A DNA stretch of 64,000 nt from Gemmatimonadales bacterium (GTDB taxonomy: Bacteria; Gemmatimonadota; Gemmatimonadetes; Gemmatimonadales; GWC2-71-9), in assembly GCA_046327735.1 (NCBI GenBank), contig JAXLXZ010000007.1:16525-80524 (forward strand), given 5' to 3'. A program made the translations under genes and the position numbers. The notes beneath the pieces were generated by a model. That model searched no databases. It had not been told where the DNA came from and worked only from the letters and a program-made list of their open reading frames with translations. Of the stretch, positions 6,608 to 59,866 are shown piece by piece. The stretch's first letter is position 1, and every line of letters starts with the position of its first letter.

Positions 6608-6788
6608 TGTCATCCCGGGGAGCGCAGGTTGTCATCCCAAGGAGCCCAGGTCGGTTGTCATCCCGAGGAGCGCAGGTCGGTTGTCATCCCGAGGAGCGCA
6701 GCGACGAGGGATCTAGCTCGCGGTACGGGAGGCACGCTTCAGGGCAACGTCCAGTAGATCCCTCGGGCCGCTGGCCCTCGGGATGACA
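6608..6788. repeat. REP-like hairpin element (family A) with 4 tandem left-arm copies
   Basis: TGTCATCCCGAGGAGCGCAGG(TCGGT) occurs four times (6608-6714). The right arm AGATCCCTCGGGCCGCTGGCCCTCGGGATGACA is at 6756-6788. Confidence 0.85.
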
Positions 6789-25327: not shown

Positions 25328-26401
25328 TCAGCGGCGATAGGGGAGCGCGAGGACGCTGTCCCAGACGGCCAGCGCCGCCTTGGGATTCAGGAGGGTGTCG
25401 ACCAGCCCCAGCCGGGAGAAGGGACCCAGGTTGGGCGCCAGATTTTCGACCAGGTCGGTGAAGGTGATCTGGTGCAGGGCCACGCCCCGTGCCGCTGTCA
25501 GGAGCTCGGCCTGCCGGGCGATGTAGCGGGCCTGGACCGCCGGGGAACTACCATAGCCATCCGAGGGCCAGCCTCCCTCGAGCACCACCGGCCGGAGGCC
25601 GGTGCCGCCGGTCAGGCGGGAGTAGTAATCGAGGGGAATGGCCTCCGGCGTGGCGAACCCGCCGAGATACGGGTACGACGACAACCCGATCGCGGTCATG
25701 AAAGGGAAGTCGGTCAGGTCGGTGGCGATCCCGAGGAAGGGGCCGTTGAGGAGCTTTCCCCACGCCGTCTCCACCTGCACGCTGATCATCAGCGGCGTGG
25801 TGCTGCCATGCGCCTTCCGCTCGGCGGCCGCGGCGTTGGTCATCTGGACCACCGCCTGATAGACCGGCGCCGGCGCGAGTGCCCGGATCAGGTTGGTTTC
25901 CGCGGCGAGGCTGAGATAGTCGGGGTGCAGGATCGAGTCGACCGCCGCGACATACTCGCGGTAGCGACGCTGCACCGCGGTGTCGGTGATGCTCCGGCCC
26001 GCATCGACCAGCGGCTGGGCCTCGGCCGCGCGGTTGAGGCCGTTGGTGACATCGAGCGCGACCGTGACGAGGCGATGAGTGGCGCGATAGTACTGCACCA
26101 GCGGCAGGCGCACGACCCGGACCTCGGTTGCCGCGGCGGTATCGGCGAGCAGCACCGTCCAGGGAATCTCGAGCTGCACCAGCCCGGCATCGGAGTGCTG
26201 CGCCGTGAGGGTGAGGACCGGGACGATCAGCGAGGTATCGACCGCCGGCGGGATCGGGGAGAAGCCCATGTGAAAGGACCGGCTCGCCCCCGAGCCGTCG
26301 TCTCCACCGCACGCGACGCCGCCAACGACAAGCATCGTCAGAACTGCTTTCCGCAGATTACGCAGATTAGAAAGATTTCGATCGCGGACTGGATGGGTCA
26401 T
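25328..26401 (-). CDS. Hypothetical lipoprotein (possible TIM-barrel glycosidase-like fold)
   Basis: RKAVLTMLVVGGVAC lipoprotein signal. The start is uncertain (26401, 26335 or 26473) because a long hairpin spans 26347-26464. Confidence 0.55.
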   Translation of the reverse strand: MTHPVRDRNLSNLRNLRKAVLTMLVVGGVACGGDDGSGASRSFHMGFSPIPPAVDTSLIVPVLTLTAQHSDAGLVQLEIPWTVLLADTAAATEVRVVRLPLVQYYRATHRLVTVALDVTNGLNRAAEAQPLVDAGRSITDTAVQRRYREYVAAVDSILHPDYLSLAAETNLIRALAPAPVYQAVVQMTNAAAAERKAHGSTTPLMISVQVETAWGKLLNGPFLGIATDLTDFPFMTAIGLSSYPYLGGFATPEAIPLDYYSRLTGGTGLRPVVLEGGWPSDGYGSSPAVQARYIARQAELLTAARGVALHQITFTDLVENLAPNLGPFSRLGLVDTLLNPKAALAVWDSVLALPYRR

Positions 26402-26464
26402 TCGCTGCGAGCCCTGATCCCTCTGGGACCGTAATCCCCTGCAATCTGCGTAACCTGCGGAAAG
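26347..26464. repeat. Long hairpin built from GCAGATTAC repeats
   Basis: CTTTCCGCAGATTACGCAGATT (26347-26368) pairs with AATCTGCGTAACCTGCGGAAAG (26443-26464), 21 of 22 complementary. Confidence 0.75.
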
Positions 26465-26469
26465 CTGTT

Positions 26470-32516: not shown

Positions 32517-33152
32517 ATGGATCCCGTCGCCCTGGCCTATCGCGAGACGCTCGGGCGGCTCGATCGCTGGTTCGACGAGGCGGTGGCGCGGAACCCCGGG
32601 GTCATCCCCTGCCGCGCGGGCTGCTCCGCCTGCTGTCACGGCCCCTTCGACATCTCCGCCGCCGACGCCCTCCTGCTTCGCGAAGCCCTCGCCGAGCTGC
32701 CGCCGGCGGACCGGGCCGACATCCGGGCCCGCGCCGTCGAGACGCTCGAGCAGGTGAAGGAACAGGCCCCGGAGTGGCGGGCGCCGTGGGACATCGCCGA
32801 CCTGGGGGAGGAGCGGTTCGACGGCATCTCCGAGTCGCTGTACGATGTCCCCTGCCCCTGCCTCGACGGCGAGGGACGCTGCCGGGTCTACGCCTCCCGG
32901 CCGCTGGTCTGCCGCCTGATCGGGCTGCCGATGATGACCGCCGAGGGGGAGCTGCTGGAGAACGCCTGCCCGATCCAGGAGGACTTCCCCGACTACGCCC
33001 TGCTCGACCCGCAGCTCTTCGACCTGGGGGCACTGGAGCAGCGGGAGAGCGGCCACAAGGAGGCGGCGGCGGAGAAGCTGTTCGGCGGGTGGAACCGGGC
33101 GGGATTCGAGACGATCATCGCGGCGGTGGCTTCAGAGGCGGAAAGGCGGTAA
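32517..33152 (+). CDS. YkgJ-family cysteine-cluster protein (UPF0153)
   Basis: CRAGCSACCHGPF and later CPCLDGEGRCRVYASRPLVCR. Confidence 0.75.
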   Translation: MDPVALAYRETLGRLDRWFDEAVARNPGVIPCRAGCSACCHGPFDISAADALLLREALAELPPADRADIRARAVETLEQVKEQAPEWRAPWDIADLGEERFDGISESLYDVPCPCLDGEGRCRVYASRPLVCRLIGLPMMTAEGELLENACPIQEDFPDYALLDPQLFDLGALEQRESGHKEAAAEKLFGGWNRAGFETIIAAVASEAERR

Positions 33153-33247
33153 GGCGGTCGGGCGGTCAGTGAAAACTCGAAAGGGTGAGCTTCTCTCGGA
33201 GCTCACCCTTTCAACGTTGCGGCTGTCCGCCCGACCGCCTGACCGCC
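33145..33247. repeat. Nested hairpin: inverted GGCGGTN heptamer arrays around a perfect 12-bp hairpin
   Basis: GGCGGTAAGGCGGTCGGGCGGTCAG (33145-33169) pairs with CTGTCCGCCCGACCGCCTGACCGCC (33223-33247). Inner AAAGGGTGAGCT (33180-33191) pairs with AGCTCACCCTTT (33200-33211). Confidence 0.85.
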
Positions 33248-34426: not shown

Positions 34427-36243
<1,817 letters not shown>

Positions 36244-37527: not shown

Positions 37528-38073
37528 ATGTCAACAGCGATTGACAGCCCCTCCGCGGCACTCGCCCCTCTACACTCTGAACTCTGGACAAACATGACGC
37601 CCGCCGAGCGCAGCGCTTTCATCGATCGGTACGCCAACGGCCCGACACTTCTTGAAGCGGCCTTCACAAAATTCCCCGTCGAGGCCCGCCAATGGCGCCC
37701 CGCCCCGGGAAAGTGGAGCGCTCACGAGATCATCGTGCACTGTGCCGACAGCGAAGCCAATGCCCACATGCGGATCCGTTTCCTCGTGACCGAGAAGGAA
37801 CCGCTCATCGTGGGGTACGACCAGGATGCCTGGGCCACCGACCAGGACTACCACGCCCACCCGCTCGACCTCGCCTTCGCCACCATCCGGGCGGTCCGTG
37901 CCAACACCGTCCCACTCCTGCGCCGCCTGACGGAGACCCAGTGGGCCAAGGTCGGCCGGCACACCGAGAGCGGGACCTACGGGGCGGAGAAGTGGCTGGC
38001 GACCTACGCCGAGCACCTCGAAGTGCACGTCCGACAACTGGCGCGAGTGCTGGGGGCGTGGGAGAAGCGGTGA
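37528..38073 (+). CDS. DinB-family protein
   Basis: WSAHEIIVHCADSE...YAEHLEVHVRQL, a DinB metal-binding His triad pattern. Confidence 0.8.
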   Translation: MSTAIDSPSAALAPLHSELWTNMTPAERSAFIDRYANGPTLLEAAFTKFPVEARQWRPAPGKWSAHEIIVHCADSEANAHMRIRFLVTEKEPLIVGYDQDAWATDQDYHAHPLDLAFATIRAVRANTVPLLRRLTETQWAKVGRHTESGTYGAEKWLATYAEHLEVHVRQLARVLGAWEKR

Positions 38074-38276
38074 GCGGTGAGCGGTGAACGGTGAGCGGTG
38101 AGCGGTGAGCGGTGAGCGGTGAGCGGTGAGCGGTGAGCGGACCGAAGGTACCGTCCACCGGTGTCATCCCGAGGAGCGTCAGCGACGAGGGATCTACTTG
38201 CCTCGACTAGATCCCTCGCTTCGCTCGGGATGACAGCCGTATCGCAGGTCCCGCTCACCGCTTACCGCTCACCGCC
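38067..38276. repeat. Composite palindromic element: (GCGGTGA)x10 - REP family A hairpin - (TCACCGC)x3.5
   Basis: Heptamer array 38067-38140. REP left arm 38162-38195, loop 38196-38208, right arm 38209-38235. Inverted heptamers 38251-38276. Confidence 0.9.
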
Positions 38277-38287
38277 CACGTAGTTTG

Positions 38288-43061: not shown

Positions 43062-44351
43062 ATGCGCATTCCATCGATGGTCCTGGCGGGAGCCCTGCTC
43101 GCCACTACCGCGCTCATGGCGCAGGGACCCGCACCACTCACGCTCGCGCAGGTCTATGACGGCGTGGCGGGGACGAGCCCGCGGCTCGCCGCCGCCCGCG
43201 CCCAGGTCGCCGCTGCCGATGCGCGGGTGCGGCCCGCGGGGAAGTGGCCCGATCCCGAGATCCAGCTCGGCCTGATGAACCGGAACCTTCCCGGCCTTGG
43301 CCTCCAGGACCCACTCGGCATGAACCAGATCCAGGTCATGCAGATGATCCCGACGGCGGGCAAGACCGGCCTGGCGGTGAAGGCCGCCCGGGCCGAGGCG
43401 AAGGCGGAAGCCGCACGCGCCGATGAGACCGGGTGGGAAGTGCGCTCACGGGCGGCGATGGTCTTCTACGACCTCTACCAGGCCGACGGCACGCTGGCCG
43501 AAATGCAGCGGGGCCGGCGGCTGCTCGAAGACATCAATCGCACCGCCTCGGCGATGTACGCCGAGGGCCAGGGGCCGCAGGTGGCGGCGCTCCGGGCCCA
43601 GATGGAGCTCGCCCGGATGGACGAAGACATCCTCCGCATGAGCGCGATGCGCGAGGGGATGGCGGCGCGGCTCAATGCCCTGCTGGCGCGGCCCTCGGAG
43701 GCGGCGCTGGGGTCGCCGGTGCTCCCTCGGATTCCCGACTCGCTCCCCTCGCGCGATTCACTCGAGGCGCTCGCGCTCGGGCGGCGGCCGATGCTGGCGG
43801 CGGGCGCGGCGAGGATCGAGGCGGCGAATGCCATGGCACGACGGGCGAGGCGGGAGATCTGGCCCGACGTGACCGTGGGCGTGATCTACGGCCAGCGGCC
43901 GATGGACGGTGGCACCGACCGGATGGCCAGCTTCATGCTCGGGTTCACCCTGCCGATTTCGGCCGGCGGCAAGCAGCGGCAGATGGCGCTCGAGGCCCGC
44001 GCCATGGAGGCGATGTCGGCGGCGGACCTGAGCGACATGCAGGCCGAGACCCGCGGGCGGATCGGCGAGGTGTACGCCGACCTGCAGCGGGCGCGCCGCC
44101 TCGCCGGTCTCTATCGCCGCACCCTCCTTCCCCAGGCCGACGCGGTCAGCGTGTCGGCGCTCACCGGCTACCGGAGCGGCTCGGTCGACTTCATGGCGCT
44201 GCTCGATGCCCAGATGGCGCTGCTCCGGGTCCGGCAGGACATCGTCCGGCTCGACGCCGAGGCCGGCAAGGCGGTCGCGGAACTGGAGATGCTCACCGCG
44301 TCGCCGCTGCTCGATCCCGCATCCACGAACAACGCAGGAGTGGCACGATGA
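43062..44351 (+). CDS. Outer membrane efflux protein (CusC/CzcC-like)
   Basis: Signal peptide and two OEP repeats. First gene of the OMF-MFP-RND operon. Confidence 0.9.
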   Translation: MRIPSMVLAGALLATTALMAQGPAPLTLAQVYDGVAGTSPRLAAARAQVAAADARVRPAGKWPDPEIQLGLMNRNLPGLGLQDPLGMNQIQVMQMIPTAGKTGLAVKAARAEAKAEAARADETGWEVRSRAAMVFYDLYQADGTLAEMQRGRRLLEDINRTASAMYAEGQGPQVAALRAQMELARMDEDILRMSAMREGMAARLNALLARPSEAALGSPVLPRIPDSLPSRDSLEALALGRRPMLAAGAARIEAANAMARRARREIWPDVTVGVIYGQRPMDGGTDRMASFMLGFTLPISAGGKQRQMALEARAMEAMSAADLSDMQAETRGRIGEVYADLQRARRLAGLYRRTLLPQADAVSVSALTGYRSGSVDFMALLDAQMALLRVRQDIVRLDAEAGKAVAELEMLTASPLLDPASTNNAGVAR

Positions 44352-45712
44352 ACACCAACCAGAACCGGGCGGTGGCCATCGCCCTGCGCGCGGGACTCGT
44401 GGTGCTGGCGGCGGGAGCGGCATGGTGGTTCACCCGCACCCCTGCCCCGGCGGCGGCTCCCTCGGGCCACAACCATGCCGCGATGGCCACGGCGGAGAAT
44501 GGCGGCGGGCCGGTGGCACTCGACGACGAGGAGCAGCGGCGGATCGGGGTCACGTTCGCCCCGGTGGAGTCGGGCGACCTCGGGCACAAGGTCCGGGTGG
44601 TAGCACAGGTCACCTGGGACGAGACCCGGGTGACGGCCATCTCGCCGCGGATCGAGGGGTGGGTCGACCGGCTGCTGGTGGACTTCACCGGCCGCACGGT
44701 GCGGGCGGGGGAGCCGCTGATGGCGGTGTACTCGCCGATGGTGGTCGCGACGGTGCAGGAGATCGGGATCGCGCGCCGGCTCGCGGGGGAAGTATCGGAG
44801 GGCAGCAGCGATGCCCGGACCCAGGCGGAAGGGCTGGTCCACTCCGGGCACCAGCGGCTCGCGGCCTGGGGCATCTCGGCGGCGGACATCGACCGGCTGG
44901 AGCAGGGTGGCGACGTGCGCACGGTGCTGCTGCGCTCGCCGGTGAACGGCGTGGTGGTCGAGAAGAACGTGGTGGCGGGCCAGCGGATCATGCCGGGCGA
45001 TGCGCTCTACCGCATCGCCGACCTCAGCACGGTCTGGCTCGAGGGCGAAGTCTTCGAGCAGGATCTCGCGTCGGCGAAGGTCGGGCTCCAGGTGACGGCG
45101 GAGTTCCAGGCGCTCCCGGGCGTCGAGCGCACCGGCCGGATCACCTACGTCTACCCGATGCTCAACCCGGAGACGCGGACCGGGAAGATCCGGGTCTCGC
45201 TTGCCAATCCGGGACTGCAACTCAAGCCGGGAATGTTCGCGACGATCCGCTTTACGACTCCGGCGCAGGCGGTGCTCTCGGTCCCCCGCTCGGCAGTGCT
45301 CTCGACCGGTGCCCGGAACCTCGTCTTCCTCAAGCGGGCCGACGGACGGTTCACGCCGACCGATGTGGTGCTGGGGCGGCAGAGCGAAGAGCGGATCGAG
45401 ATCCTGCGGGGGCTTTCGGCGGGCGACACGGTGGTGGCGTCGGCGACGTTCCTGCTCGATGCGGAGTCGAACCTGGGCACGCTGATGGGCGGGATGGGTG
45501 ACATGCCGGGGATGGACATGACGGCACCGGGCGGCGCCGGGCAAGGGAGTGCGCCGGCGACGAATCCCGCGCCGGCGGCGAAGGCGCCGGGCAAGGCCAC
45601 GACGAAGGCCAAGCCAGACACCGGCATGGGAGACATGCCCGGCATGGACATGCCGGGAATGGACATGTCGAAGCCGGACAGCAGCCAACATCAGCATCAG
45701 CACCAGGAGTAG
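44348..45712 (+). CDS. Heavy-metal efflux periplasmic adaptor (CusB/CzcB-like) with Met-rich C-terminal tail
   Basis: ATGA overlap with the OMF stop. HlyD-like core (LRSPVNGVVVEKNVVAGQRI). Tail GGMGDMPGMDM...GMGDMPGMDMPGMDM...QHQHQHQE. Confidence 0.9.
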   Translation: MNTNQNRAVAIALRAGLVVLAAGAAWWFTRTPAPAAAPSGHNHAAMATAENGGGPVALDDEEQRRIGVTFAPVESGDLGHKVRVVAQVTWDETRVTAISPRIEGWVDRLLVDFTGRTVRAGEPLMAVYSPMVVATVQEIGIARRLAGEVSEGSSDARTQAEGLVHSGHQRLAAWGISAADIDRLEQGGDVRTVLLRSPVNGVVVEKNVVAGQRIMPGDALYRIADLSTVWLEGEVFEQDLASAKVGLQVTAEFQALPGVERTGRITYVYPMLNPETRTGKIRVSLANPGLQLKPGMFATIRFTTPAQAVLSVPRSAVLSTGARNLVFLKRADGRFTPTDVVLGRQSEERIEILRGLSAGDTVVASATFLLDAESNLGTLMGGMGDMPGMDMTAPGGAGQGSAPATNPAPAAKAPGKATTKAKPDTGMGDMPGMDMPGMDMSKPDSSQHQHQHQE

Positions 45713-50016: not shown

Positions 50017-50130
50017 CTGTCATCCCCGAGCAGCGCGACAAGGTCTGTCATTCCGAGCCGCGGAGCGGCGAGGAATCCCTGATTCTCTTCAAGAAAGAGC
50101 AGGGATCCCTCGCTGCGCTCGGGATGACAG
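50017..50130. repeat. REP family A hairpin (plus a partial extra left arm)
   Basis: Partial arm 50017-50044. Left arm CTGTCATTCCGAGCCGCGGAGCGGCGAGGAATCCCTG at 50045-50081. Loop 50082-50099. Right arm CAGGGATCCCTCGCTGCGCTCGGGATGACAG at 50100-50130. Confidence 0.85.
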
Positions 50131-50164: not shown

Positions 50165-51811
50165 TCAGCGCCGGTACGGGTACCCCTTCTTCAAGAGCTG
50201 GTTCAGCCGCCGGTCGTGGCCGTAGATGTCACTGTATAGAAGCACGTCACCATTTTCCCTTGCGATGGCCGTGCCATAGACGATGAAGACCGGGATGGGG
50301 TGGGAGAGGTCTACCCGGATCGGGGTCTCCCCTTTCATGGCCTCCCGGATCCGGTCGTCGGTCCACTCGGGCTGGTCGCGCAAGACGAAGCGGGCCAAGG
50401 CGAAAGGGTCCCCCAGCCGGATGCAGCCGTGACTTGCGTCACGCTTGCTCCGCTCGAAGAGGGAGCGGGAGGGGGTATCGTGAAGGTAGACCTGGTAATC
50501 GTTCGGGAGCAGGAACTTCACCCCGCCCAGTGCATTGTGCGCCCCCGGGGTCTGCCGGACCCGGACGCCGTTGCCGATGGCGGCGATGTTCTCCGGGGTG
50601 CCGGGCACGACGTCGTTCCCGCGGATCAGCTCCATGTGGTTCTTCACGAGCCAGGCGGGGTTCTTCGTGGCGGCGGGCTTCACCTCGTCGGCGGCGATGG
50701 TCGGGGTGACTTCCCAGTGGGGCGCGAAGATCAGGTAGGTCATGTCCGCGGCGAAGACCGGGGTCTCGGTCTTGAAGGCGGTCCCGACCACCACGTTCAT
50801 GCGGAGCAGGCTCGACTCGTCGCTCTGGTCCCCGCTGAAGGCGTAGAGCCGGAAGGCGGGAATGTTCACGAAGATGGGCGGCGCGGAGAACTTCCGCGGC
50901 ATCCAGCGGAAGCGCTCGAGGGTCAGCTCCATCTGCCGGATGGCGCCCTCGAAGGGATGCTGCATGCGGGCACGGGTCGAGTCGCCGATCACGCCATCGG
51001 GGGTGAACCCCTGGCGCGCCTGGAAACGCTTGACGGCATCGACGAGCGTCCCGGCATAGGCCGTGTCGCCGGCCTGGGTCACCACCGAGTCGCGGTCGTC
51101 GCCCAGGAGCCGGAGGAGGCGGCGGAGTGCCGGTACCCCCTCGTACCGGTCGCCCGGCCGGAGCCGGCGCGGCATCGGGGGGAGCTGGACCAGGAGCGAG
51201 TCTTTCGCGAGCTCTCGATAGCGGACCAGTGCGCCGATCAGCAGGTAGTAATGCAGCAGCGACGGCTCGAGGGGCGAGAGCACGTTGTTGGGCTGCGCCG
51301 CGGTGCTGAGGCGGACGAGGGTGCTGTCGACGGTAAAGCTGTCGACCGGGAGCTTGAAGGTCGCGTGGACCGCGGCGGGATTCACCCGGCCCTTCCGGAG
51401 GGCATAGGCGAAGCGGCTGGCGGCGACCGAGAGGCCGACCTCGAGCCGGGCCACGCGGCTCGAGTCGCCGCTCAGGATCGGGCGGTCGGCCTCGGCCCGG
51501 AACCAGCCGGCATCGTAGTCGCGGGGGTCGAGGCCCCGGTTCGCGGCCTCGCCAAGGACCCGGATGAGGGCGCGCGCCGGGGCGGTGAGGGTGTCGTCGG
51601 AAAACCAGAGGGGCCGCCACCCGCGCGCGGCGTAGACCCGTTCGAGATCGGGCTGGACGTCGGTGAAGACCGGCCAGCGCAGTCCGGGGAGCCGCCCGGC
51701 CGCGACCAGGGTCTCGACCTGCTGCTCGACCGGGGTGGCCTGCGGGAGAAGCGGGTGCGTCGCCGGGAGCAGGGCCCCGGCGAGGGCAAGGACCGCGAGT
51801 GATCGGTGCAT
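50165..51811 (-). CDS. L,D-transpeptidase, YcbB/LdtD-like (PG-binding domain plus YkuD domain)
   Basis: PG-binding motif (AVKRFQARQGFTPDGVIG). Catalytic SHGCIRLGDPFALA. Confidence 0.85.
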   Translation of the reverse strand: MHRSLAVLALAGALLPATHPLLPQATPVEQQVETLVAAGRLPGLRWPVFTDVQPDLERVYAARGWRPLWFSDDTLTAPARALIRVLGEAANRGLDPRDYDAGWFRAEADRPILSGDSSRVARLEVGLSVAASRFAYALRKGRVNPAAVHATFKLPVDSFTVDSTLVRLSTAAQPNNVLSPLEPSLLHYYLLIGALVRYRELAKDSLLVQLPPMPRRLRPGDRYEGVPALRRLLRLLGDDRDSVVTQAGDTAYAGTLVDAVKRFQARQGFTPDGVIGDSTRARMQHPFEGAIRQMELTLERFRWMPRKFSAPPIFVNIPAFRLYAFSGDQSDESSLLRMNVVVGTAFKTETPVFAADMTYLIFAPHWEVTPTIAADEVKPAATKNPAWLVKNHMELIRGNDVVPGTPENIAAIGNGVRVRQTPGAHNALGGVKFLLPNDYQVYLHDTPSRSLFERSKRDASHGCIRLGDPFALARFVLRDQPEWTDDRIREAMKGETPIRVDLSHPIPVFIVYGTAIARENGDVLLYSDIYGHDRRLNQLLKKGYPYRR

Positions 51812-51813
51812 TG

Positions 51814-52111
51814 CCCGGAACTTAGCTCGGGGTTGCGGGACTTGCTAAGGTTCATGCCTGAGGCGGCAGATTTCAGGTCGCTGAGTTTGTCTCGTGGCTG
51901 AGCTGGGCAAACCGACAAACACAGATGTTCACAGATGGGACCGGATGTGTTCCTTGCGCGCGAACAGCTCCGTCGTGTCAGGTCGCTGAGATCGAGCGTG
52001 CTGCCAATTGCAAGTCAAACCGACCAGCGCAGCGAGCCAGCGCCGGATCTGTGCGGCACATGGATGGGATCCGGTCCCATCTGCAGTTATCTGTGTTAGT
52101 CAGTTGACCAA
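51814..52111. repeat. Copy 1 of tandem ~300-bp structured low-GC module (candidate ncRNA or MITE-like element)
   Basis: Near-identical to 52112-52411. Bipartite inverted repeat 51914-51947 / 52068-52101. Confidence 0.9.
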
Positions 52112-52411
52112 GCCCGTGACTTAGCTCGGGGTTGCGGAGACTTGCTAAGGTTCATGCCTGAGGCGGCAGATTTCAGGTCGCTGAGTTTGTCTCGTGGCTG
52201 AGCTGGGCAAACCGACTAACACAGATGTTCACAGATGGGACCGGATGTGTTCCTTGTGCGCGAACAGCTCCGTCGTGTCAGGTCGCTGAGATCAAGCACT
52301 TTGTTACCAACAAATCGAACCAACCAGCTCAGCGAGCCAGCGCCGGATCTGTGCGGTTCATGGATGGCATCCGGTCCCATCTGCAGTTATCTGTGTTAGT
52401 CAGTTGACCAA
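52112..52411. repeat. Copy 2 of tandem ~300-bp structured low-GC module
   Basis: Bipartite inverted repeat 52214-52247 / 52368-52401 (13 + 16 bp perfect, with a 5x5 bubble). Confidence 0.9.
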
Positions 52412-52429
52412 CCGGAGCGAGAGACAGAC

Positions 52430-53578
52430 TTGAGCCGCGACGAACCGTTGACCCCCGACGAGCTGGCAAGGTACAGCCGGCACCTGATCCTTCCCGATGT
52501 CGGGATGGAGGGGCAGCTGCGTCTCAAGGAATCGAGTGTGCTGCTGGTGGGCGCGGGGGGACTCGGGTCGCCGCTCGGGCTGTATCTCGCGGCTGCGGGC
52601 GTCGGGCGGATCGGGATCGTGGACTTCGACCGGGTGGATGCGTCGAACCTGCAGCGGCAGGTCATCCACCGTACCGCCGACATCGGCCGCCCCAAGCTCG
52701 ACTCCGCCCGCGACGCGATCGCCGCGCTCAACCCGCACGTGCGGGTCGAGCCCCACCCGGTGCGGCTCACCTCGGCGAACGCCCTCGAGATCGCGCGCGG
52801 CTACGACGTGGTGATCGACGGCAGCGACAACTTCCCCACCCGCTACCTGATCAACGACACCTGCGTGCTGCTGGGGAAGCCCTACGTCTATGGGAGCGTA
52901 TTCCGCTTCGAGGGCCAGGTCGCGATCCTCGCCACGAAGGATGGCCCCTGCTACCGTTGTCTCTTCCGGGAACCGCCGCCGCCCGGCATGGTGCCCGGCT
53001 GCGCCGAGGGCGGGGTGCTGGGCGTGCTGCCGGGACTGGTGGGGATCATCCAGGCAACCGAGGCGATCAAGCTCCTGCTGGGGATCGGGGAGACCCTCGC
53101 CGGCCGGCTGCTCCTGGTCGATGCGCTCACGATGCGGTTCAGGACCCTCACCCTCTCGCGCGACCCCGAGTGCCCCGCCTGCGGAACCCGGACCCTGACG
53201 GAACTCATCGATTACGAACGTTTCTGCGGACTCACCCCGGAGCCAACCAGCATGACTGACGGAGCAGACCTGACCCCGCCCGAACTGGCCGAGAAGCTGA
53301 AGCGCGGAGACGACTTCGACCTGATCGATGTGCGGGAGATGCACGAGTGGAACATGGGCCATATCGAAGGGGCCCGGCACATCCCGCTGGGAAGCCTGGC
53401 GCAGGCGACGGCGGAGCTGGACCCGTCCCGGGAAATCGTGGTCTACTGCAAGAGCGGCGGGCGGAGCGGGCGGGCCAAGGCCCACCTGGTGGCGAGCGGG
53501 TTCGGGCGGGTGCGGAACCTCCTGGGGGGGGTGCTTCGGTGGAGTGACGAGGTGGATCCGCGAATGCCGAAGTACTGA
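52430..53578 (+). CDS. moeB: Molybdopterin-synthase / sulfur-carrier adenylyltransferase with C-terminal rhodanese domain (MoeB/MoeZ-type)
   Basis: YSRHLILPDVG, GAGGLGSP, CxxC pairs (CYRC, CPAC). Rhodanese CKSGGRS active-site loop. Confidence 0.9.
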   Translation: MSRDEPLTPDELARYSRHLILPDVGMEGQLRLKESSVLLVGAGGLGSPLGLYLAAAGVGRIGIVDFDRVDASNLQRQVIHRTADIGRPKLDSARDAIAALNPHVRVEPHPVRLTSANALEIARGYDVVIDGSDNFPTRYLINDTCVLLGKPYVYGSVFRFEGQVAILATKDGPCYRCLFREPPPPGMVPGCAEGGVLGVLPGLVGIIQATEAIKLLLGIGETLAGRLLLVDALTMRFRTLTLSRDPECPACGTRTLTELIDYERFCGLTPEPTSMTDGADLTPPELAEKLKRGDDFDLIDVREMHEWNMGHIEGARHIPLGSLAQATAELDPSREIVVYCKSGGRSGRAKAHLVASGFGRVRNLLGGVLRWSDEVDPRMPKY

Positions 53579-59738: not shown

Positions 59739-59866
59739 GAGCCGGGAGGGCGGAGCGGGAGCGGGGGCTCCGCGGAACTGACGTTCGCTCTCCGGCACCC
59801 ACCTCGCGCGGGATGGGCTCACTGACGTTCCGCTCCGCCCCCGCCCCCGCTCCGCCCTCCCGGCTC
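59739..59866. repeat. GC-rich long hairpin with GGAGCGG-type repeats
   Basis: GAGCCGGGAGGGCGGAGCGGGAGCGGGGGC (from 59739) pairs with GCCCCCGCCCCCGCTCCGCCCTCCCGGCTC (to 59866). ACTGACGTTC is present as a direct repeat at 59777 and 59821. Confidence 0.75.

Follow-up and report, generated by a model that had tools for sequence, protein, structure and literature searches.

A tandemly duplicated quasi-palindrome in the divergent gap between ldt and a moeB-like gene of a Gemmatimonadales bacterium, with a possible origin by local expansion of the control region

The window, a 64-kb stretch of contig JAXLXZ010000007.1 from a Gemmatimonadales bacterium that was analysed as a whole and is numbered from its first letter, features an L,D-transpeptidase gene (ldt) and a moeB/moeZ-like gene that diverge from a gap of 618 nucleotides (nt) filled by two head-to-tail 300-nt units. 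The reading proposed here, to which a probability of about one half is given, is that the control region of the divergent ldt-moeB pair was expanded and duplicated locally, in this lineage, the feature being neither an imported element nor a separate gene. Each unit would be composed of an ancestral promoter block, about 50 nt of ancestral leader and a 212-nt quasi-palindrome. The palindrome would have grown in situ, its arms being inverted copies of an ancestral array of three 10-nt CAGATG repeats upstream of moeB, and almost the entire gap, that is the divergent promoter/leader region, would then have been duplicated in tandem. The copies would have been kept about 97% alike by recency or gene conversion, with the exception of the palindrome tip. 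The genes and units are as follows.

50165 to 51811, minus strand: ldt gene, a YkuD L,D-transpeptidase with Scaffold and PG_binding_1 domains (Pfam)
51812 to 52111, no strand: tandem unit 1, 300 nt, adjoining the ldt start codon (Tandem Repeats Finder and alignment)
52112 to 52411, no strand: tandem unit 2, 300 nt, ending 18 nt before the moeB TTG (Tandem Repeats Finder and alignment)
52414 to 52432, plus strand: moeB ribosome-binding region, with GGAG at 52414-52417 and TTG at 52430-52432, a unique sequence homologous to the stretch upstream of moeB in relative L089
52430 to 53578, plus strand: moeB/moeZ-like gene, ThiF and rhodanese domains, TTG start (Pfam)

Tandem Repeats Finder determined a single array at 51813-52411 with a period of 300, 2.0 copies and 92% matches, and MAFFT pairwise alignment of the two units gave a mean column identity of 96% with a 1-nt indel separating them at 51838/39. 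The left edge of the repeat lies 1-2 nt past the ldt start codon (51809-51811). The GC content of the repeat is 0.55-0.58 vs 0.66-0.77 in the flanks. An earlier note made from the letters alone had described a head-to-tail duplication of about 300 bp in the divergent gap, of lower GC than its flanking genes, and had called those genes ldtD-like and moeB-like; the alignments, the GC values and the Pfam assignments bear this out. An Amt transporter gene is next after the moeB-like gene. The moeB start codon at 52430 is TTG, and the orthologous codon is ATG in the relatives L089, L093 and L092.

Contigs that reach into the repeat exist outside this assembly. An exact-protein look-up found identical Ldt or MoeB encoded on Logan contigs of three other sequencing runs, and those contigs break off within the repeat, 56-57 nt from the left edge of unit 1 or 30 nt from the right edge of unit 2. 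These ends are the k=31 graph branch points expected if two copies with these variants exist, so the repeat is unlikely to be an artefact of this assembly. A single copy falsely doubled is scarcely credible: repeats in metagenome-assembled genomes (MAGs) are prone to error and a run of 100 N stands at the same site in L092, but a structured 36-nt core and copy-specific variants set the copies apart, and the unitigs of three independent runs stop exactly where two distinct contexts would branch.

Each unit features a 212-nt imperfect palindrome that folds as a rod-like hairpin.

51902 to 52113, no strand: quasi-palindrome 1, helix A 51914-51926/52089-52101, helix B 51932-51947/52068-52083
52202 to 52413, no strand: quasi-palindrome 2, helix A 52214-52226/52389-52401 (13/13), helix B 52232-52247/52368-52383 (16/16)

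The bipartite inverted repeat proposed earlier for each copy is present with both helices and the 5x5 bubble between them, but helix A of copy 1 pairs at 12 of 13 positions (an A.A mismatch at 51917) and the pairing reaches out to 212 nt. Copy 2 pairs fully in both helices (13/13 in A, 16/16 in B), and helix B of copy 1 pairs at 15/16. The arms are 58-60 nt long and 72-76% complementary, including the perfect 13- and 15-16-bp blocks, and are of the kind that counts as terminal inverted repeats. The fold z-scores are -4.8 on the plus strand and -5.3 on the minus strand, with none of 200 shuffles folding as well. The consensus fold energies on the two strands, -89.6 vs -92.2 kcal/mol, amount to equal stability, and this equal folding favours a recent DNA-level palindrome more than an RNA that was under selection on a single strand.

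Nine Gemmatimonadales relatives were compared, the closest six of which have 72-82% Ldt identity, and all close relatives retrieved share the gene order AcrB - M15 peptidase - Ldt <> MoeB - Amt. The gap is 52-246 nt in the relatives vs 618 nt here.

L093: Ldt identity 80%, ldt-moeB gap 52 nt
L089: Ldt identity 82%, ldt-moeB gap 138 nt
L092: Ldt identity 79%, ldt-moeB gap 246 nt, 100 of them the Ns of a scaffold gap
More distant relatives: Ldt identity 72-78%, ldt-moeB gap about 60-190 nt

In neighbor-joining (NJ) trees of Ldt and of MoeB the closest branch to the window is its sister L089, and L093 and L092 fall outside this pair; in the MoeB tree the L009 row is disregarded, as its coordinates were wrong. 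The first 100 or so positions of the unit can be aligned to the gaps of L089, L092 and L093, which share the block AA(A/C)TTAGC-N17/18-GCTAA(CC/GG)TTCA, and a further block, CAGTTTGTCTCG(A/T)(T/G)GCTG, is common to the unit and L089. The pattern TTAGC/GCTAA of this module has 2 sites in the window vs 0.02 expected. The first ~100 nt of the unit are thus ancestral control region, including a conserved ldt -10 box, so the unit is not one homogeneous non-coding module. The earlier description of the 300 bp as a single non-coding module holds as far as non-coding goes and fails on this point.

51819 to 51824, minus strand: probable -10 box of ldt, reading TAAGTT in ldt sense and separated from the ATG by 7 nt (conservation)
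51822 to 51848, no strand: promoter module copy 1, TTAGC-N17-GCTAA, with a homologous block in L089, L092 and L093
52118 to 52148, no strand: promoter module copy 2, ldt-sense -10 TAAGTC, spacer 1 nt longer (sequence reading)

Module copy 1 reads TTAGCA-18 nt-TAAGTT on the minus strand and TTAGCT-18 nt-TAAGGT on the plus strand. In the window and in nine relatives a GCTAnnnT box in ldt sense precedes the true ATG by 7-10 nt, and across these ten lineages it takes the form TAAGTT, TAATTT, TATTTT or TATACT; no Shine-Dalgarno sequence was found before the true ATG in any of them. This conservation suggests a promoter role, and the box is probably the -10 element of a leaderless-type ldt promoter. 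In unit 2 the -10 lacks the final T (TAAGTC) and the spacer is 1 nt longer, so the distal copy of the ldt promoter is probably crippled or inactive. The whole L093 gap is only 52 nt, so a moeB promoter there would have to overlap the TTAGC...GCTAA block, and the ancestral block probably also holds the moeB promoter on the opposite strand. A consensus scan for sigma-70 promoters and terminators, in a phylum (Gemmatimonadota) whose promoter types are poorly known, gave 0 sites and hence no promoter or terminator per unit. Sigma-54 and extracytoplasmic function (ECF) motifs were rejected by eye for wrong spacing or for not being kept in relatives.

Three relatives carry over-long ldt calls. In L008 (506-545) and in L096 and L097 (2501-2539) ldt is called 13 codons too early (MVRSAARSYFPPP-MK...), and these calls run across a conserved GCTATTTT -10-like box. 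The true start in these relatives is likely the signal-peptide-like MK(Q/P)P...

The arms of the palindrome have a resident counterpart in L092.

51918 to 51947, plus strand: 5' arm array of unit 1, three tandem 10-mers AACACAGATG TTCACAGATG GGACCGGATG (CAGATG array)
52218 to 52247, plus strand: 5' arm array of unit 2, the same array of three 10-mers

The 3' arms hold the inverted counterpart of this CAGATG array. At the same site, L092 features an orthologous array, ACCACAGATG AGCATAGATC AGAACGGATG, that is identical to the window array at 23 of 30 positions, including unit-specific variants, and that aligns to the two arms with scores of 42 and 45, reached by none of 300 shuffles. L093 has a single ACAACAGATG directly before the moeB ATG. 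The similarity between the gap tail of L089 and the hairpin arms is not significant, so that the ancestry of the arms is backed by L092 only. Since the window is sister to L089 and L092 lies outside in the NJ tree, the array would predate this clade, and since the L092 array is homologous to the arms, the arms appear to be resident ancestral sequence that was inverted and duplicated and not imported termini. In L092 (GCA_964642475.1, CAZXRC010000019.1) the 100-N scaffold gap at 2782-2881 lies inside the ldt-moeB gap, directly after the array of three CAGATG 10-mers, and a homologous palindrome may be hidden in it.

Further marks of local rearrangement lie within the units.

51873 to 51885, plus strand: 13-nt motif TCAGGTCGCTGAG, site 'a' of unit 1; further sites at 51978-51990, 52173-52185 and 52278-52290

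This motif has four exact sites vs 0.1 expected (none of 2000 shuffles) and occurs twice per unit, 105 nt apart. In unit 1 each TCAGGTCGCTGAG is followed 22-25 nt downstream by CAAACCGAC, a pattern that shows one more direct duplication, internal to the palindrome. The pentamer CCGGA marks the two outer boundaries (51815-51819 on the left, 52412-52416 on the right) and recurs in each of the two arms, which is consistent with a microhomology-mediated rearrangement. By sequence comparison, unit and arms are homologous to ancestral sequence at the same locus and the differences between copies are centred on the axis, which is the pattern of an in-situ quasi-palindrome with tandem duplication. The feature would then be an orphan new instance of known processes, with a possible cis-regulatory role.

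The alternative of an imported element was raised by the earlier note in the form of tandem elements resembling miniature inverted-repeat transposable elements (MITEs), and it does not stand up well. It would have a MITE- or REPIN-like element of ~190-212 nt with terminal inverted repeats of ~34-58 nt insert into the gap and then be duplicated together with its flank. The long terminal inverted repeats, the lower GC and the intergenic place resemble MITEs, Correia/NEMIS elements and REPINs, which are likewise of ~200 nt and can give long RNA hairpins; moreover, the full element is missing from the sister lineages L089 and L093, and contigs in other assemblies break at it. Nevertheless, there is no target-site duplication and no direct repeat flanking 51902/52113 or 51910/52105, and no other copy occurs in the 64-kb window or among about 100 related loci. 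Scans requiring an exact 19-base arm pattern, ACAGATNNNNNCAGATGGGACCGG, found four single chance-level matches in 185,579 representative genomes (~4 expected by our own estimate) and one chance-level match in IMG/VR viral contigs, and by blastn none of the matches extends past ~30 nt. The 600-nt region has no blastn match in plasmids or phages. The short tandem repeats of the arms are homologous to resident L092 sequence, and the unit includes promoter DNA that is not part of any such element. A clean empty site was not found, with L089 carrying an unrelated ~40 nt there, and the genuine dispersed palindromic family of this genome (GTCATCCCGAGG...) is unrelated in sequence. A mobile origin is accordingly considered improbable.

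A reading of the same arms at the level of DNA, a protein-binding array as the earlier note had also suggested, gains some support from the 10-nt CAGATG periodicity kept in L092 and is compatible with an in-situ origin. OmpR/CpxR-type regulators bind direct repeats about one helical turn apart, and E. coli ldtD is regulated by Cpx. The 10-nt periodic CAGATG repeats could be an operator array bound by a regulator of ldt and/or moeB, an OmpR/CpxR-type response regulator being a candidate, perhaps with DNA looping. The 10-mer periodicity is read straight from the sequence, with direct and inverted arrays of three repeats per arm in both units; the orthologous L092 array is 77% conserved, at least matching the promoter block; one CAGATG copy stands directly before moeB in L093; and folding has no strand preference. 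Against these points, Pfam assignments of the neighbours include no regulator gene adjoining the locus, the motif is missing from the sister lineage L089, and operators need no 28 near-perfect bp of inverted symmetry 120 nt apart. The variable tip is also left unexplained. An operator array is thus unlikely as the account of the whole feature, and it is a serious, non-exclusive rival to the leader model described below.

The two copies differ chiefly in a 36-nt core, as had been noticed from the letters, with differences in 14 of 36 core columns (51994-52029) vs 9 of 268 elsewhere (Fisher p=3e-9).

51994 to 52029, no strand: variable core of unit 1, on the symmetry axis, centre CAATTG at 52005-52010
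52294 to 52329, no strand: variable core of unit 2, on the same axis, centre TTTGTT-ACC-AACAAA at 52300-52314

In a gapped alignment the core difference amounts to about 8 substitutions and two 3-nt indels, and seven of the core substitutions are GC to AT when read from copy 1 to copy 2. Both copies are palindromic about the same axis with different sequence. The apical 15 nt contain one double change of C-G to T-A, and three more changes make new pairs. Of the four substitutions in the palindrome outside the core, two fall at helix ends (51917 and 52068) and both make copy 2 the better hairpin. The pattern fits selection for a hairpin with a free tip, and it also fits template-switch mutagenesis at the tip together with gene conversion elsewhere. 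Quasi-palindromes are described in PMC7202029 as mutation hotspots via template switching.

Template-switch quasi-palindromes combined with tandem duplication by unequal or illegitimate recombination share with this feature an imperfect inverted repeat with a defined axis, changes that cluster at this axis and are complementary in part, arms built from adjacent sequence and a short homology (here CCGGA). They differ in scale, the present case being a larger palindrome of 212 nt nested in a 300-nt tandem duplication, and neither the direction nor the mechanism of change is fixed by two copies.

The variable tip also bears on the possibility that the units encode two paralogous structured small RNAs (sRNAs), ~210-nt rod hairpins in which the apical 36 nt would set target specificity. 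The tandem sRNA paralogs OmrA/OmrB, PrrF1/PrrF2 and AbcR1/2 have alike ends and different centres, and the present units resemble them as head-to-tail duplicates with near-identical ends and a divergent central segment. The very stable structure (z about -5), the gathering of differences at the tip, the tip that is still a hairpin in each copy, where one pair is compensatory and several are new, and the substitutions at helix ends, which alter pairing, agree with such a pair. Unlike those paralogs, the units have no promoter or terminator of their own by the consensus scan and fold without strand asymmetry. Each also includes the promoter of the neighbouring ldt gene and for this reason is not a self-contained sRNA gene. 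No U-tract follows the hairpin on either strand, and no Rfam family is matched. The full hairpin is missing from L089, L093, L008, L009 and L096-L100 (the L092 gap is of undefined length), and no complementary target beyond chance was found in the window. An sRNA pair is therefore held to be rather improbable. A broader form, in which the hairpins are functional RNAs, free-standing or processed from a moeB leader, with the 36-nt apical segment as an exchangeable antisense- or guide-like determinant, is highly unlikely; if true, it would be a young, locally born RNA regulator family caught diversifying. The idea that the cores are guides or spacers was rejected, as searches with the two cores against the window, phages (best E=0.09) and IMG/VR gave chance-level matches at most.

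An invertible promoter switch, in which a recombinase flips the ~120-nt segment between the inverted repeats and so gives phase variation of ldt or moeB, is very improbable indeed. Inverted repeats do flank a short promoter-region segment beside a cell-envelope gene, but no recombinase is encoded among the neighbouring genes, the arms are bipartite and imperfect, the consensus scan calls no promoter-like site within the segment, and reverse-complementing the core of copy 1 does not give that of copy 2.

The known RNA families were searched with Rfam covariance models, including Moco (RF01055), HEARO and 6S. For 51000-53200 there was no match at E<=10 except a chance microRNA inside ldt, and at the gathering threshold the whole window gave 0 matches; a scan for tRNA and tmRNA found none. 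The shared part of the units is 264 nt, there are only two units, no cas-like neighbours are present and the cores are without significant phage or IMG/VR match, which is unlike a CRISPR (clustered regularly interspaced short palindromic repeat) array with its several units of about 23-55 nt. The earlier note, which could assign the module to no tRNA, CRISPR array, recognised riboswitch or insertion sequence (IS) element, was right on this point.

A protein-coding reading was also rejected. Concatenated six-frame peptides have no match at E<=10 among 5.8 billion proteins. The open reading frames (ORFs) in the repeat have a GC content at third codon positions (GC3) of 0.55-0.63 vs 0.86-0.93 in seven of eight window genes compared (0.75 in the eighth, an HlyD ORF), their GC is flat by codon position and their codon scores are negative. 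The specific proposal of two copies of a small protein gene with a variable middle (60-aa ORFs at 51925-52107 and 52225-52407, plus strand) is effectively refuted: the frame is open in both copies and 5 of 13 changed codons are synonymous, which is not significant, but GC3 is 0.55-0.57 vs ~0.9 in most host genes, no frame has a homolog, and the 60- and 54-codon ORFs are mirror products on both strands that arise from the palindrome itself. Type I toxin-antitoxin long direct repeats (LDR, Sib/Ibs, zor-orz) are likewise arranged in tandem between genes, measure a few hundred nt and show long-range pairing in RNA, but here no small hydrophobic ORF is kept in both copies, the six-frame segments contain no transmembrane-like peptide common to both, and the codon statistics are non-coding.

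Under the proposed expansion, the hairpins would be transcribed within a long 5' leader of moeB, whose length would be at least ~270 nt if transcription begins at the unit-2 block and ~570 nt if it begins at the unit-1 block. The short gaps of the relatives imply that moeB is transcribed from the promoter block, so that such a leader would carry the hairpin or hairpins.

52176 to 52195, plus strand: site 'a' of unit 2 with GTTTGTCTC, pairing with the moeB start region 52421-52441 in the modelled leader

In the modelled leader 52157-52470, the partners of this stretch around the moeB start are GAGACAGAC-UUG and GCGAC, the probability of being unpaired is about 0 for 52421-52429, and the duplex has an energy of -24.3 kcal/mol. 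The 'a' motif at the base of the leader would thus pair with the TTG start region, the rod hairpin would stand in the loop of this base stem, and moeB translation or mRNA stability would depend on the base structure being opened or processed by cleavage. The model gives weak support to this arrangement, a probable long moeB leader that contains the hairpins and can cover the TTG with its base. The Moco RNA motif (RF01055) and the structured leaders of moco genes similarly lie upstream of moeB-type genes, and the modelled leader can occlude a start codon; the present structure differs from the Moco motif in being a simple rod hairpin without an Rfam match that is not kept even in the sister lineage.

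Several observations weigh against the expansion reading and the leader model attached to it. The clean 5x5 bubble, five consecutive mismatches between two perfect helices, seems designed more than decayed. Simple duplication followed by drift would not lead one to expect so extreme a clustering of differences at the tip; this clustering needs an extra assumption, whether gene conversion with an escaped island, hypermutation or template switching at the tip, or selection, and it is the one truly unexplained aspect of a feature whose structural history is otherwise largely explained. The full element is known from two sequences only, which are too few for covariation. The start-codon pairing is marginal against shuffles (p=0.027, for a region chosen post hoc) and was not reproduced in the sister lineage L089 (p=0.37); a conserved anti-start pairing, with its marginal support in the window only, was rejected. 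The putative plus-strand promoter is a weak consensus match, and the scan calls no sigma-70 site.

If the expansion reading is right, the locus gives a clear instance from nature of a compact bidirectional promoter swelling from the 52-138 nt of close relatives to 618 nt through short tandem arrays, inverted duplication and tandem duplication, and the outcome is a doubled promoter and a long structured leader before the gene of a sulfur-carrier-activating enzyme. No new element class is opened and no long-standing question is made testable, and the feature is a local curiosity. In practice, the site breaks short-read assemblies, as seen in the Logan contig ends and in the 100-N gap of the related MAG L092, and gene callers in relatives mis-start ldt upstream of the conserved -10 box.

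Heptamer arrays are found in the ldt-moeB gaps of other relatives (L008 at 440-490; L096, L097, L098, L009 and L100), in the forms (CGGAACT)x7, (GAGTACC/GAGTTCC)n and (GCGTTCC)x4. The arrays of L009 and L100 are mutually inverted, and array length varies by lineage, as in contingency-type simple repeats. Within the window, an (AGCGGTG)x10.7 array at 38066-38140 is paired with an inverted (CGCTCAC)n array at 38251-38279, giving a microsatellite-armed nested hairpin that encloses a REP-like palindrome. Intergenic inverted repeats also occur at 33145-33247, with (GGCGGTx)n arms around an inner hairpin, and at 26342-26469, with 27-nt arms containing CGCAGATTACGCAGATT, and 40-nt GC-rich arms that are 90% complementary lie in a convergent gene gap at 59739-59866. 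These short-repeat-armed hairpins of the window, taken with the arrays in relatives, suggest that local generation is routine in the lineage, and the local birth of repeat-armed hairpins seems to be a general property of its intergenic DNA.

The REP-like palindromic element is dispersed at 6608-6788, 38163-38237 and 50020-50130, and also at 35469-35480. It reads TGTCATCCCGAGGAGCGCAGCGACGAGGGATCTA ... TAGATCCCTCG..CTCGGGATGACA, with a GTCATTCCGAGC variant in the ldt-M15 gap, and the family has 9 sites at <=1 mismatch vs 0.95 expected. At 6608-6701 the element is in tandem, with a 26-nt period and 3.8 copies. It is missing from all 100 related loci and from Rfam.

One further gene call in the window was unusual. 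The HlyD/CusB-like ORF at 43433-45712 has a GC3 of 0.75 and a GC content at second codon positions of 0.60, vs about 0.9 and 0.47-0.53 in seven other genes, and its Pfam match begins at residue 383. The start of this ORF is probably called too far upstream, so that its N-terminal ~380 codons overlap the OEP gene (43062-44351) in another frame.

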